This document shows, piece after piece, positions 897 through 7,409 of a stretch of 64,000 nucleotides of DNA (within the stretch, counting starts at the first letter, position 1; each line of letters starts with the position of its first letter). Under the pieces are notes generated by a model. It was given only the letters and a program-made list of their open reading frames with translations. It searched no databases and was not told the origin of the DNA. The position numbers and the translations under genes were made by a program. The DNA lies in NCBI GenBank assembly GCA_964476595.1, contig CAYZCL010000053.1, forward strand, positions 40,690 to 104,689, read 5' to 3'. This DNA is from an uncultured Desulfobacteraceae bacterium. GTDB lineage: Bacteria > Desulfobacterota > Desulfobacteria > Desulfobacterales > JALSRD01.

Positions 897-2096
897 ATGG
901 AAATGAAACAGGGTCAAGCGATTTTTCAGACGGTTCCCAGGATCGTCTTCGGGGTCGGCAGCATCGAGGGCCTGGGGGCGGAATTGAAGCGCACGGGCGG
1001 CCGGCGCGTGGCGGTGATTACGGACTCCGGTATCGTGGGGGCCGGCATCGACCGGCTGGCGGTCGATGCCTTGGTAAAAGAGGGGCTGGAAGCGGCCGTG
1101 TTCGAAGGCGTCGAACCGGATCCGCGCATCGACATCGCCGGCAGGGCCGCTGAATTCGTGCGGGATCAGGGGGCCGATGCGATTGTCGGCCTGGGGGGCG
1201 GCAGTTCCATGGACATCGCCAAGGCCGCGGCGGTGATCTGCACCAACCCGGATCCCATCGAGGCTTACAAGGGCGTCAACCAGGTCCCCAGGCCGGGGCT
1301 GCCCACCGTATTGGTCCCCACCACCGCCGGCACCGGTTCCGAGGTGACCTCCATCGCGGTGCTCAGCGACACGGCCAACAAGGTCAAGGTGGGCGTGGTG
1401 TCGGACCACATGTTCGCCCGCTGCGCGCTCCTGGACCCGGCCCTGACGGTCAAGCTGCCCCCGCGGGTGACGGCTTCCACCGGGCTGGACGCGCTGATCC
1501 ACGCCATCGAGTCCTACGTCGGGCGCCAGGCATCCTTCATGACCGAACCGCTGGCGCTGGCGGCCATCGAGCTGGTGGCCGAAAACCTGCGAAAGGCATA
1601 CGCCTGCGGCGAGGATCTGGATGCCCGTACCGGCATGCTGCGGGCCAGCCTGCTGGCCGGCATGGCCTTTGCCAACACCCAGACCGGAGCCGCCCACGCC
1701 TGCGCCCTGGCCCTGGGCGGCGCTTTTCACGTGCCCCACGGCATCGCCACCTCGCTGATGCTGCCGGCGGTGATGCGCTTCAACAGCATCGCCGTGCCCG
1801 AAAAGTTTGCCCGTATCGCCGCGATTTTCGGCGAGAAGGTGGCGGGGCTCCCGCCCACGGCGGCGGCACGGCGGGCGGTGGCGGCCGTGATCGACCTGAT
1901 CGAGGACGTCGATTTCGAACTGGGCCTGGAAAACTACGGCGTGACCGAAAGCGACATCCCCGGCCTGGCCGAGGCGTCCATCCTGCCGGCCGCCCGGCTC
2001 TGGAACAACAACCCGCGCAGCGCCACCCGCGAGCAGGTGGAACGGATCTTTCTCGATTCCATGTCGGCGGGTGTTGCGGCCCTCAAGGGGGAGTGA
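897..2096 (+). CDS. Iron-containing (group III) alcohol dehydrogenase
   Basis: 399 aa. Contains GGGSSMDIAKAAA, a PTTAGTGSE nucleotide/metal region and conserved His residues (HAIESY, AHACA..HVPHG). GGAAGGGG RBS lies before the ATG. Confidence 0.85.
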   Translation: MEMKQGQAIFQTVPRIVFGVGSIEGLGAELKRTGGRRVAVITDSGIVGAGIDRLAVDALVKEGLEAAVFEGVEPDPRIDIAGRAAEFVRDQGADAIVGLGGGSSMDIAKAAAVICTNPDPIEAYKGVNQVPRPGLPTVLVPTTAGTGSEVTSIAVLSDTANKVKVGVVSDHMFARCALLDPALTVKLPPRVTASTGLDALIHAIESYVGRQASFMTEPLALAAIELVAENLRKAYACGEDLDARTGMLRASLLAGMAFANTQTGAAHACALALGGAFHVPHGIATSLMLPAVMRFNSIAVPEKFARIAAIFGEKVAGLPPTAAARRAVAAVIDLIEDVDFELGLENYGVTESDIPGLAEASILPAARLWNNNPRSATREQVERIFLDSMSAGVAALKGE

Positions 2097-2147
2097 GGCA
2101 AAACCCGCAGGCGAAGCGGGGTTGAAGGTTTTTGGGCAGCGCCGGCA

Positions 2148-2212
2148 TGTTGCATTTTTGCACCTGCTGGCAGATTTGCCACGTCGCCGGGGTCGCCTTG
2201 TTGCATTTTTGC
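2148..2212 (+). promoter_or_regulatory. Pair of identical 14-bp direct repeats TGTTGCATTTTTGC, candidate upstream activator sites
   Basis: Exact copies at 2148..2161 and 2199..2212, 51 bp apart (about five helical turns). They lie 150-230 bp upstream of a sigma-54-type promoter. Confidence 0.4.
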
Positions 2213-2364
2213 GACTACGGCCCGCCTTCACACTTTCCGGTTCGTTGCGGCAGTGAATGACGGCCGCCGGAACCGGTTTTTCCCATGTATAACATGCCGG
2301 AATTACCAGCGTTCGGTTTTCCGGCGGCCGACGCTGGAGAGATGGGGTGTTTTCGGCGGTCGGA

Positions 2365-4932: not shown

Positions 4933-5016
4933 CGCCGCTTTTGAAAAACAGGCGGCGGATCGTTCCGGCGCGCGGTCGCGCCGGCTGTTACCGCCTTTGA
5001 AAGAGGCTCGGGTCGT

Positions 5017-5949
5017 ATGCCGCAAAACAACCAAAAGGGACTGATTTTCAACATTCAGAAGTACTCTGTGCACGACGGCCCGGGCATCCGCACGGTGGTT
5101 TTCTTTTCCGGCTGCCCCCTGCGCTGCAAGTGGTGCAGCAACCCGGAGTCCCAGTCCGGCCGGCCGCAGCTGTTCTACAACCGCAACAAGTGCATCACGC
5201 TGGACGAATGCCGCCGCTGCGTGGAGGTCTGCCCGGAATCCGCCATCGGGGCGGCCGAAGACCGCAGGGCGCACATCGACCGGGCCGCCTGCAGCGGCTG
5301 CCTGCTGTGCGCCGAGGCCTGCCCCGCCCAGGCGCTGCAGGTCTACGGGGAGGAAAAGACGGTGGCCCGGGTGCTCGAGCGCGTGGAGCAGGATGGTGTT
5401 TTCTACTCACGCTCGGGCGGAGGGCTTACTTTGAGCGGCGGCGAACCCATGCAGCAGCCGGCGTTTGCCGTGGCCCTGCTGCGCGAGGCCCGGCGGCGGC
5501 GCATCAACACCGCCATGGAAACCAGCGGGTTCTGCGCCGCGGAAGACCTGCTGTCCGCCTGCGAACACCTCGACTTCCTGCTCTACGACATCAAGGTGAT
5601 GGATCCGGATGTGCACCGGGAGGCCACCGGTGTTTCCAACGATCGCATTTTGCGAAATCTGGAGCAGGTGCGCCGCGCCCGTCCGCAGCTGCCCATCCTG
5701 GTGCGTACGCCCGTCATCCCGGGGGTCAACGACAGCCCCGGGGCCATCCGGGCGATCCTGGATTTTATCGGGGGATTCGAGAACCTGCACTACGAGATGC
5801 TTTCCTACCACCGCATGGGAAGCCCCAAGTACGCCTGCATCGGAAAGGACTACCCCATGGGGGACGTGGAACTGGGCGATGACGTGATGCCGGCGCTGAG
5901 GGAGTTGCTGGAAAACGAGTACGGCCACCTGCGCTTCTGCGGCCGCTAG
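5017..5949 (+). CDS. Glycyl-radical enzyme activating enzyme (radical SAM)
   Basis: CPLRCKWCSNPES radical-SAM cluster motif, plus an insert with two ferredoxin-like Cys motifs (CRRCVEVCP, CSGCLLCAEACP). Lies immediately downstream of the GRE. Confidence 0.9.
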   Translation: MPQNNQKGLIFNIQKYSVHDGPGIRTVVFFSGCPLRCKWCSNPESQSGRPQLFYNRNKCITLDECRRCVEVCPESAIGAAEDRRAHIDRAACSGCLLCAEACPAQALQVYGEEKTVARVLERVEQDGVFYSRSGGGLTLSGGEPMQQPAFAVALLREARRRRINTAMETSGFCAAEDLLSACEHLDFLLYDIKVMDPDVHREATGVSNDRILRNLEQVRRARPQLPILVRTPVIPGVNDSPGAIRAILDFIGGFENLHYEMLSYHRMGSPKYACIGKDYPMGDVELGDDVMPALRELLENEYGHLRFCGR

Positions 5950-7409
5950 GCATCCCCGGCGCGTAGTTTGCGAAACAGGGTGGAGCGGTCGATGCCCAGG
6001 CGCCGGGCCGCCGCCGTGTGGGAGCCGCACTGCTCCAGGACCCGCACCAGCACCTGGCGCTCGATGTCGCGCATGGCGGCTTTCAGGCCGCGGTTTCCCT
6101 CGGCCAGTTCATGGGCCAGCGACGAGAGATCCAGGGCCGTTGATTCGGCCGGCGACCCGGCAGCTGCGGCCGCCGATTCCCGGTAGCCGGCCGACAGCCC
6201 GCCGATCATGCCGGCGGGCAGGTCCGAGAGGCCGATGCCCCCCTTGCTGCGTGTGATCACCAGGCTCTGTACCAGGTTTTCCAGTTCGCGCACATTCCCC
6301 GGCCAGGCATACCGCTGCAGCGCGTCCAGCACGGCATCCTCGAAAAAGAGATCCCGTTTGTAGCGGGTCGTGTAGCGCCGCAGGAAGTGCCGCGCCAGGG
6401 GAACGATTTCCTCGCGCCGCTCGCGCAGCGGCGGGATGGTGATCACCGCCACCCGCAGGCGGTAGTAAAGATCGCGACGGAATCGGCCCTGTCGCACCTC
6501 TTCTTCCAGGTCACGGTTGGTGGCCGCGATGATGCGCACGTCCACCCGGCGGGTGCGGGTGGACCCCACCCGCACGATTTCGCGGTCCTGGAGCACCCGC
6601 AGCAGCTTGGCCTGCATTGAAGGCGGCAGTTCACCGATTTCGTCGAGCATCAGGGTCCCGCCGTCGGCCATTTCGAAAAATCCCGGTCTGCCGTGCCTGC
6701 GGGCGCCGGTGAAGGCGCCGGGAACGTGCCCGAAAAGCTCCGACTCCAGCAGGGTCTCGGGGATCGTGGGGCAGTCCACCTTGATGAAGGGCATCCGGGC
6801 GCGGGAGCTGAGACGGTGGGTGCGGCGCGCGAAGACGTCTTTTCCCGTTCCGGTTTCGCCCAGCAGCAGCACGGTGGCGTCGGTCTCGGCCACCTTTCCG
6901 ATCTGCTGCAGGATTTTTTCGATGGCAGGCCCCCGGGTCACCAGGGGCTGTTCCAGGTCTCTTTCCTCGGTGATGTACTGGATGTTGGTGCGGTATTTTT
7001 CCACCAGCTCGCGCTGGGAGCGGAGCTCTTCGCGGAGCTGCGTCATCCGGGTGACGTCGCGCACGAAGGTGACCACCAGCGCCACCCGGCCCTTTTCATC
7101 GAAGATGGGGTAACCCGTCAGGACCAGTTTCTTGCCCTGCTTGCTGATCTGCAGGGACGTGGCCGGCTTGCCGGTTTTGACGATGGTGGGGTTCAGAACG
7201 GTGTTGAAATAACCCGCGTCCACCAGGTGCTTGACGTTGCGGCCCAGCAGGTAGGATTTTGTCAGCCCGCTGAGGCGCTCGTACATGGTGTTGACCTTGA
7301 GGGTGCGCCCCCGGCGGTCGGAAATGTATATCCCGTCGCTGATCAGGTCCAGGATTTCGTCCAGGTAAGCCGGGATGCCGGCACCGGCTTCTTTGGTTCG
7401 GTCGCCCAT
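5946..7409 (-). CDS. Sigma-54-dependent transcriptional activator with N-terminal PAS-like sensor
   Basis: Walker A GETGTGKD, intact GAFTGA loop (ELFGHVPGAFTGA), LMLDEIGEL Walker B, RIIAATNRDL, and a C-terminal Fis-type HTH (AAARRLGIDRSTLFRKL). Start set at ATG 7409 (GAGAGG RBS) rather than the ORF-track 7436. Confidence 0.85.
   Translation of the reverse strand: MGDRTKEAGAGIPAYLDEILDLISDGIYISDRRGRTLKVNTMYERLSGLTKSYLLGRNVKHLVDAGYFNTVLNPTIVKTGKPATSLQISKQGKKLVLTGYPIFDEKGRVALVVTFVRDVTRMTQLREELRSQRELVEKYRTNIQYITEERDLEQPLVTRGPAIEKILQQIGKVAETDATVLLLGETGTGKDVFARRTHRLSSRARMPFIKVDCPTIPETLLESELFGHVPGAFTGARRHGRPGFFEMADGGTLMLDEIGELPPSMQAKLLRVLQDREIVRVGSTRTRRVDVRIIAATNRDLEEEVRQGRFRRDLYYRLRVAVITIPPLRERREEIVPLARHFLRRYTTRYKRDLFFEDAVLDALQRYAWPGNVRELENLVQSLVITRSKGGIGLSDLPAGMIGGLSAGYRESAAAAAGSPAESTALDLSSLAHELAEGNRGLKAAMRDIERQVLVRVLEQCGSHTAAARRLGIDRSTLFRKLRAGDA

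Follow-up and report, generated by a model that had tools for sequence, protein, structure and literature searches.

The glycyl-radical enzymes (GREs) IseG of Desulfovibrio (Nitratidesulfovibrio) vulgaris Hildenborough (DVU2824, with its activase IseH, DVU2825; structure 5YMR) and IslA of Bilophila wadsworthia (with its activase IslB; structures 7KQ3 and 7KQ4) are isethionate sulfite-lyases (EC 4.4.1.38). Through their desulfonation of isethionate and taurine, anaerobes of gut and sediment are known to turn organosulfonates into sulfite and H2S. A relative, HpsG of B. wadsworthia (with HpsH; 6LON), is a sulfolyase of (2S)-2,3-dihydroxypropane-1-sulfonate (DHPS). In Bilophila, the reductase TauF/SarD converts sulfoacetaldehyde to isethionate for IseG (PMC6453916; PMC10413351). 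Here we describe a locus in a 64,000-nucleotide stretch of a contig (CAYZCL010000053.1) from an uncultured Desulfobacteraceae bacterium, a stretch called the window below. The locus encodes an iron-dependent alcohol dehydrogenase (Fe-ADH), a GRE, a radical S-adenosylmethionine (SAM) activase and a sigma-54 activator. We read it as a compact isethionate-desulfonation cassette of a sulfate-/sulfite-reducing Desulfobacterales-like bacterium, and give a probability of roughly 0.75 both to this reading and to isethionate being cleaved by the mechanism proposed below.

The assignment rests first on the GRE itself. Its glycyl-radical motif RIAGYSAYF occupies residues 798–806, with Gly801 as the radical site, and its cysteine loop GCSE (residues 463–466) brings Cys464 and Glu466 into line with C466/E468 of IseG and C468/E470 of IslA (residue numbers of the query are those of IseG minus 2). 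A phmmer search across the whole PDB returned IseG as the best match (5YMR, 1413 bits), with IslA (7KQ3) at 1363 bits and HpsG (6LON) at 1197; CutC, the glycerol and diol dehydratases and HypD scored 430–500 bits, and PFL about 77. By MAFFT, the GRE is 73.4% identical to IseG, 69.3% to IslA and 61.9% to HpsG, the alignment with the two isethionate lyases being full-length and free of gaps. Xing et al. (2019) delimited the IseG similarity cluster at an identity above about 60%, a value that the GRE exceeds against both IseG and IslA; the 62% shared with HpsG exceeds it too, so that the threshold by itself does not decide the substrate.

The active site also supports the assignment. In IseG, the sulfonate of isethionate is held by Arg187, Gln191 and Arg676, three residues that the IseG cluster keeps and other GREs lack, while Phe680, Ile190 and Thr310 make van der Waals contacts to the substrate (Xing et al., PMC6453916). 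In IslA, Glu470, Gln193, Arg189, Arg678 and Val680 are essential, and Phe682 and Trp374 matter for kcat (Dawson et al., PMC8473560; 2026 review, PMC13450708). The GRE of the window keeps the sulfonate triad as R185, Q189 and R674, and the other substrate-contact or mutagenesis residues of IslA (Val680, Phe682, Trp374 and Thr312) as V676, F678, W370 and T308. Its sole substrate-contact change relative to IseG is Ile190 to Leu188; this difference is not diagnostic, because the equivalent Ile192 of IslA is unconserved among homologues and the I192A mutant retains KM and most of kcat (Dawson et al., PMC8473560). The GRE is thus very probably a sulfonate C–S lyase of the IseG/IslA family.

A preliminary description of this DNA, made from the letters alone, had called the locus an orphan whose substrate could not be read and was perhaps new. 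That view finds no support in a gap-free match of 73% to IseG and 69% to IslA with all sulfonate-binding and catalytic residues kept. The description had also said what would make the GRE a known enzyme, namely high-identity clustering with a characterised GRE and conserved binding residues, and the IseG/IslA match is largely of that kind. Its broader classification, a single-Cys, C-x-E 1,2-eliminase with a clustered-Cys activase, was borne out, isethionate lyases having been among its candidate clades, and the GRE call stands, as both the Gly and the Cys loop are present in the alignment with IseG and IslA. A single Cys, C-x-E and a clustered-Cys activase do not by themselves fix a substrate, and the window lacks an importer and a microcompartment, which leaves some room for a GRE eliminase of an undescribed, non-sulfonate substrate class whose aldehyde product the Fe-ADH would reduce. 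We find such an enzyme scarcely credible here: the Arg/Gln/Arg triad, reported as a conserved feature of IseG/IslA homologues that the other compared GREs lack, is present, the query shares about 70% identity with two solved isethionate lyases, and the NCBIfam scores for CutC (509 bits against a cut-off of 1050), HypD (529 against 1100), Klebsiella HpfG (466 against 1000) and HPAD (287 against 1150) fall far short, as does that for PFL (85 against 994).

Automated annotation offers a different substrate. The GRE scores 1556 bits against NCBIfam NF048011, an 'equivalog' model with a cut-off of 1000 named (2S)-3-sulfopropanediol dehydratase, and the activase scores 452 bits against NF048010 (cut-off 430). 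These matches, together with the RSALQ segment and Cys479 that the query has in common with HpsG, would fit an HpsG-type DHPS sulfolyase releasing hydroxyacetone and sulfite, an activity close to the automated name. However, NF048011 does not discriminate, for IseG (1559 bits) and IslA (1504 bits), both proven isethionate lyases, score like HpsG (1509 bits), and we rejected the name for this GRE. The model takes in the C–S lyase superclade as a whole, and proven isethionate lyases are wrongly named by it. Several homologues in databases are already called (2S)-3-sulfopropanediol dehydratase, and annotation via NF048011 will mis-name this gene and the whole family.

What distinguishes the two types is their pocket signature. 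Among 118 full-length HpsG homologues it reads RALQ / ASA / G[N/V]EFQ / CTE[T/A] / CV / RVI; in the validated isethionate lyases it is RSIQ / TGT / GGAFN / C[T/I]E[A/I] / GA / RVF, and in the GRE of the window RALQ / TGT / GGAFN / CSEI / CA / RVF. Most of the 118 HpsG homologues have the ASA, G[N/V]EFQ and CV segments and an Ile in place of the Phe; the query has none of these but TGT, GGAFN, CA (Ala480) and Phe678, and is of the isethionate type where HpsG carries smaller or polar residues (Ala for Thr, Ile for Phe, GNEFQ for GGAFN). The family-wide comparison thus yields a usable pocket signature by which IseG-type and HpsG-type enzymes can be told apart. In a bootstrapped neighbour-joining tree of 50 sequences (200 replicates; the D. 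piger and D. desulfuricans enzymes were left out), the HpsG clade was split from all others in 200/200 replicates, with the query on the IseG side. Given this split, the signature, and an identity of 62% to HpsG against 73% to IseG, a DHPS sulfolyase is very improbable and an isethionate lyase remains the preferred assignment.

About nine metagenomic proteins in the HpsG homologue set combine an HpsG-type N-terminal signature (RALQ, some with ASA or G[N/V]EFQ) with the IseG/IslA-type GA and Phe further on; such proteins may have arisen during assembly, as chimeras of the two paralogues in organisms that, like Bilophila, have both.

Gene context was compared across 80 genomic loci with relatives of the GRE, fetched from 467 that were found (single loci are cited as L001 and so on). 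Length-greedy calling of open reading frames (ORFs) proved unsuitable in high-GC loci because it chose antisense ORFs; genes were instead called by a codon-usage-scored caller, the neighbours clustered, and cluster representatives annotated by Pfam. The activase is present in 66 of the 80 loci, in 62 of them directly 3' of the GRE, and a PAS/sigma-54 activator in 42. Recurrent neighbours also include importers, either the TRAP (tripartite ATP-independent periplasmic) set DctP/Q/M or major facilitator superfamily (MFS) or ATP-binding cassette (ABC) transporters, and a bacterial microcompartment (BMC) set of BMC-H, BMC-T, EutN, a PduS/RnfC-like protein, EutQ, aldehyde dehydrogenase, PTA and AckA. 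Such a set carries an aldehyde through acyl-CoA and acyl-phosphate to acetate. It agrees with the acetaldehyde route that has been published for isethionate (PMC10413351; PMC13450708), and it adjoins both canonical IseG genes and non-canonical ones, including those of L003 and L004. The GREs of these two loci are 84% identical to the query and nearly the same in pocket signature (Ala or Asp replaces two query residues), and their flanks hold TRAP DctPQM, EutQ, PTA, the PduS/RnfC-like protein and BMC shell genes, with AckA in L003 only. Neither of the two HpsG-clade loci examined has BMC genes; the neighbours include an aldo-keto reductase in one and an FMN-reductase-like gene in the other, which fits a ketone product rather than an aldehyde. 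The gene context of close relatives therefore favours acetaldehyde and hence isethionate. The window and L001 are exceptions in this context, having only the Fe-ADH upstream.

An Amidohydro_2 protein of the D. vulgaris DVU2820 family adjoins IseG-type GREs in 32 of the 80 loci (for example L003, L004, L017 and L061) and, in L088, where it is encoded at 7631–8512, also an HpsG-type GRE; none is present in this window. Its gene is often divergent from the operon, with TGCA-N4-TGCA sites in between.

In the window itself, an ORF check recovered all four genes where the preliminary description had placed them, and motif and Pfam analysis agreed with it on Gly801, Cys464/Glu466 and the three-cluster activase. 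The layout of the cassette is as follows.

897–2096, plus strand: Fe-ADH, 399 aa; iron-dependent group III alcohol dehydrogenase, SarD/TauF-like, putative sulfoacetaldehyde reductase.
2104–2120, no strand assigned: GC-rich hairpin just 3' of the Fe-ADH stop codon; possible terminator.
2151–2162, no strand assigned: upstream activating sequence (UAS) 1, TGCATTTTTGCA; enhancer palindrome, presumed activator-binding site.
2202–2213, no strand assigned: UAS 2, TGCATTTTTGCG; putative enhancer site, 51 bp from UAS 1.
2366–2379, plus strand: predicted sigma-54 promoter, GGCATGCTTTTTGC; −24 GG, −12 GC; its end lies 73 bp before the GRE start codon.
2452–4932, plus strand: GRE, 826 aa; glycyl-radical sulfonate C–S lyase of the IseG/IslA family, most likely an isethionate sulfite-lyase.
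5017–5949, plus strand: activase, 310 aa; radical-SAM activating enzyme of the IseH/IslB type.
5946–7409, minus strand: activator; one-component sigma-54 enhancer-binding protein with PAS sensor, AAA+ domain with GAFTGA, and Fis-type helix-turn-helix (HTH); DVU2827 family.

At its longest, the minus-strand reading frame of the activator extends to 7436. The source contig was also matched to JBPNTS010000100.1 of the MAG (metagenome-assembled genome) GCA_054029475.1 and to an ENA assembly. On it, Pfam assigned Fe-ADH, Fe-ADH_2 and ADH_Fe_C to the first protein, PFL-like (PF02901) and Gly_radical (PF01228) to the GRE, Radical_SAM and Fer4 to the activase, and PAS_9, Sigma54_activat and HTH_8 to the activator; with E-values of practically zero throughout, the four gene calls cannot be put down to chance. 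The activase has the cysteine pattern C33-x3-C37-x2-C40 and eight more Cys (59, 65, 68, 72, 92, 95, 98 and 102), an arrangement consistent with two ferredoxin-type clusters, and it scores 352 bits against the GRE activase model TIGR02494 (cut-off 174). G+C is about 65% across the whole window, and the cassette is not compositionally distinct.

The window was surveyed by Pfam scans of about 50 ORFs and by tblastn with proteins that flank the GRE family elsewhere. Neither turned up a microcompartment shell gene, a TRAP or MFS importer, an aldehyde dehydrogenase, PTA or AckA in the 64 kb, and the source contig, over the 10 kb further upstream, carries lipid and fatty-acid genes and likewise no importer, microcompartment or aldehyde-processing genes. 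The earlier observation that no shell gene or transporter accompanies the cassette thus held; the Opp-type and Liv-type ABC transporters elsewhere in the window are unrelated to it. A TauE/SafE-family membrane protein (sulfite/sulfonate exporter family) is encoded at 35425–36318 on the plus strand, 28 kb from the cassette, with no evident linkage.

The Fe-ADH is the second element that bears on the substrate. Its translation contains the GGGS and Asp/His metal-ligand motifs, and its best NCBIfam match is the sulfoacetaldehyde reductase SarD (NF050025, 400.5 bits), which leads the next matches by 70 bits (ErcA 330, GbsB 319, FucO 300, EutG 230). For the GRE-adjacent Fe-ADHs of four non-syntenic loci (L013, L063, L065 and L070), SarD is again the best match, at 428–500 bits. 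A homologue search returned generic names only, and homologues 63–73% identical sit with TRAP DctPQM and no GRE (L083, 2817–15159; L085, 4717–16475; L086, 4630–9161). In L083 and L085 the order is GntR, rhodanese, aldehyde dehydrogenase, Fe-ADH and TRAP, followed by molybdopterin or heterodisulfide-reductase-like oxidoreductases, and these clusters may represent a pathway, so far uncharacterised, that handles an alcohol carrying a sulfonate or carboxylate group. As TRAP transporters of this kind serve anionic substrates, the company kept by these homologues argues for an anionic, probably sulfonated, alcohol or aldehyde as the substrate of the Fe-ADH rather than ethanol.

By its family match, the Fe-ADH would thus probably reduce sulfoacetaldehyde to isethionate, and such an internal supply would explain why no importer stands beside the cassette. 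The preliminary description had taken the Fe-ADH to indicate an aldehyde product of the GRE. An aldehyde product is possible, but that use of the Fe-ADH is not the best supported one, in view of the SarD/TauF match, the TRAP-linked homologues, and the hairpin and enhancer/promoter elements that lie between the Fe-ADH and GRE genes. Reduction of the acetaldehyde product to ethanol is accordingly a rather unlikely role, one that draws what plausibility it has particularly from the absence of a BMC or an aldehyde dehydrogenase nearby.

Regulation ties the locus to the same family of systems. Over its full length, PAS domain included, the activator is 43–62% identical to activators that stand beside the GRE in other family loci and 83% identical to that of L001. 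The D. vulgaris 'PFL' DVU2824 is the protein now called IseG. In the study by Kazakov et al. (2015, PMC4641369), the predicted regulon of the activator DVU2827 comprises the amidohydrolase DVU2820, TRAP genes, the 'PFL' DVU2824 and an activase, with sigma-54 promoters. In the window, the spacer between Fe-ADH and GRE measures 355 bp and holds the UAS pair and the promoter GGCATGCTTTTTGC, which has the correct −24/−12 spacing. The promoter is invariant in an alignment of the window with L001 and L002, UAS 1 is kept in both, as is the block GTTGCATTTTTGC at UAS 2, and the UAS and promoter blocks form conserved islands of this spacer alignment. Equivalent sigma-54 elements precede the GRE in L001–L004 and L009, and in 35 of the 80 loci under a relaxed pattern.

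Across the family, the motif TGCA-N4-TGCA is concentrated near the GRE start: its density is 1.47/kb within the surrounding 510 nt, where 37 of the 80 loci have it, but 0.068/kb in the remainder of the loci (Poisson P ~1e-56). In transporter-led operons it lies 5' of the transporter or between the transporter and a divergent amidohydrolase gene. Locus comparison thus provides a putative enhancer motif that is conserved for the regulators of this family, and suggests that the published DVU2827 motif is identical with it. UAS 1 and UAS 2 are the only sites of the TGCA-N4-TGC(A/G) type with an A/T spacer in the 64 kb; the window-wide count of TGCA-N4-TGCA is not above chance, so that the enhancer argument rests on position, pairing and conservation. 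Both sites are presumed to be bound by the adjacent sigma-54 activator, a function we infer from these features.

A scan of positions 500–7800 for sigma-70 promoters gave no match, and neither a sigma-54 promoter nor a TGCA-N4-TGCA site was found upstream of the Fe-ADH gene, which for this reason cannot be placed in the same regulon as the GRE. The hairpin between the two genes has the form CCCGC-AGGCGAA-GCGGG; the terminator scan flagged its minus strand, and on the plus strand a T-run begins 8 nt after the stem. It is possibly a terminator that separates the Fe-ADH from the GRE transcription unit. Similarity of the regulator was also considered as a means of discriminating between substrates and was rejected, since the activator beside an HpsG gene is 50% identical to that of the window, as similar as those beside canonical IseG genes.

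These elements suggest the following mechanism, for which the residues are seen in the sequence and the chemistry is taken from IseG and IslA. The PAS/sigma-54 activator would sense an inducer, bind the two TGCA-N4-TGC(A/G) sites at 2151–2213 and turn on sigma-54 RNA polymerase at GGCATG-N5-TTGC (2366–2379), giving a transcript of GRE and activase. Using SAM and a reduced [4Fe-4S] cluster, the activase would abstract hydrogen from Gly801. The glycyl radical would in turn generate a thiyl radical at Cys464, which would take a hydrogen from C1 of isethionate (2-hydroxyethanesulfonate) while Arg185, Gln189 and Arg674 grip the sulfonate; with the hydroxyl deprotonated by Glu466, sulfite would leave C2 and acetaldehyde would be formed. 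Sulfite would then be respired to H2S by a dissimilatory sulfite reductase whose genes would lie in another part of the genome. The Fe-ADH, for its part, would use NAD(P)H to convert sulfoacetaldehyde, derived from the breakdown of taurine, sulfoacetate or sulfoquinovose, to isethionate, and so feed the lyase inside the cell.

Several observations weigh against this reading. Two features of the GRE resemble HpsG and not IseG/IslA, namely RSALQ on beta-1 and Cys479, which sits in SGCAY on the strand after the Cys loop. In the tree, in which not every assayed enzyme was placed, the subclade of IseG and IslA (189/200) excludes the query, which groups with L001–L004 (199/200) and then with L005, L006 and L057 (200/200). 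Its closest relative is the 95% identical GRE of L001, from an uncultured 'Desulfobacteraceae' metagenome-assembled genome (MAG), and the next, at 84–86%, come from Desulfobacterales and Desulfosarcinaceae MAGs. None of the assayed enzymes placed in the tree falls in the query's half, which constitutes the main residual uncertainty, and we know of no assayed member of the query's own subclade. The Fe-ADH score of 400 bits is below the 700-bit equivalog cut-off for SarD, so that orthology is not assured, and the hairpin and enhancer between Fe-ADH and GRE leave co-regulation of the two genes unproven. The activator is equally similar (50%) to the one beside the HpsG-clade gene of Oceanidesulfovibrio marinus, and hence places the locus in the sulfonate-GRE family without naming the inducer. 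Finally, importer, microcompartment, aldehyde dehydrogenase and dsr genes are all absent from the window by Pfam and tblastn, and the pathway context in this genome is to that extent unseen.

The same observations could mean that the GRE is a sulfonate C–S lyase whose subclade prefers another hydroxy-sulfonate, such as a C3 compound or another sulfonate derived from marine osmolytes, with the Fe-ADH making or consuming the matching sulfo-aldehyde or alcohol. Besides the position of the query outside the canonical assayed clade, this would accommodate a mixed pocket signature (HpsG-like in RSALQ and Cys479, IseG-like in the rest), a gene set unlike that of most family loci (an Fe-ADH, no TRAP and no BMC), and Fe-ADH homologues that sit in clusters of TRAP and aldehyde-dehydrogenase genes of unknown substrate. 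We nevertheless hold it to be improbable. The determinants of pocket size that differ in HpsG (Phe678, Thr308 and GGAFN) are of the isethionate type in the query; the near-identical signature of L003 and L004 is found with BMC and PTA genes (and AckA in L003), as befits an aldehyde that can be converted to an acyl-CoA, such as acetaldehyde; and the Ile192 position is documented as variable and non-critical. It would likewise be at long odds that the subclade of the query and L001–L006 (Desulfobacterales and Maridesulfovibrio MAGs), which joins an IseG-type pocket to an HpsG-type beta-1 (RSALQ) and Cys479, has come to prefer some sulfonate that is not isethionate. If it had, this would be a third specificity among C–S-cleaving GREs, coupled here to a dedicated SarD-like Fe-ADH without importer or microcompartment. 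Isethionate remains the substrate that we favour.

Some neighbouring genes deserve mention. Divergent from the activator, at 7650–8504 on the plus strand, lies a gene for an FMN-reductase/iron-sulfur-flavoprotein-like protein (284 aa, with CxxC motifs) whose N-terminal 105 residues are 41% identical to the FMN_red gene product encoded directly upstream of the HpsG-type GRE of O. marinus (L087). As a conserved partner it was rejected, being found among the 80 IseG loci only in the window and L001; a role in supplying electrons for activation is conceivable, as is a merely coincidental similarity. A second sigma-54 enhancer-binding protein (11096–12592, plus strand; 498 aa), with AAA+ and HTH_8 domains and no sensor domain recognised by Pfam, is 28% identical to the cassette activator. 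Near the cassette there are also genes for a LUD-domain protein (8482–9135, minus strand) and, at 13997–17882 on the plus strand, for an FAD-linked oxidase of the D-lactate/glycolate oxidase type, a LarA-like protein of the lactate racemase family and a PdxA-like dehydrogenase, which together suggest hydroxy-acid metabolism. The prfB gene for release factor 2 (13120–14061, plus strand) has the classical programmed +1 frameshift site TAT CTT TGA C at 13023–13032, with an internal Shine-Dalgarno-like GGAG 5' of it, and its main ORF begins at position 29 of the PCRF profile. Rfam and tRNA scans of the window were both empty.

Set beside the described systems, the cassette is closest to those of IseG and IslA. 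The lyases have in common the Gly loop, the GCxE Cys loop, the Arg/Gln/Arg triad and the Val, Phe, Trp and Thr of the pocket, and the systems share an adjacent three-cluster activase, an activator of the PAS/sigma-54 family and a sigma-54 promoter. The GRE of the window differs from IseG and IslA in having RSALQ for RSSIQ, SGCAY for SGGAY and GCSEI in the Cys loop, and in lying outside their subclade; its locus differs in having no adjacent TRAP/MFS importer, Amidohydro_2 gene or microcompartment, and an Fe-ADH gene immediately upstream. With HpsG it shares the superclade, the sulfonate triad, RSALQ and the Cys at 479, but it belongs to a separate clade, and HpsG's ASA, G[N/V]EFQ, CV and Ile are TGT, GGAFN, CA and Phe in the window. 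The Fe-ADH is, like SarD/TauF of B. wadsworthia (E5Y946), an Fe-dependent group III alcohol dehydrogenase, although the Bilophila gene sits with ald and tpa and not directly upstream of the lyase. As in the DVU2827 regulon (PMC4641369), a PAS/AAA+/HTH activator accompanies a 'PFL-like' gene and its activase, with sigma-54 promoters and palindromic upstream sites; here, in contrast, the activator is convergent with the activase and appears to control, as far as is visible, only the GRE and activase genes, and it carries GAFTGA where DVU2827 has GAFSGA.

The locus thus overturns no existing knowledge and would be a member of the known IseG/IslA system. It would extend that route to an uncultured, high-GC Desulfobacterales-like lineage, in the form of an unusually stripped-down cassette of lyase, activase, regulator and SarD-like reductase.

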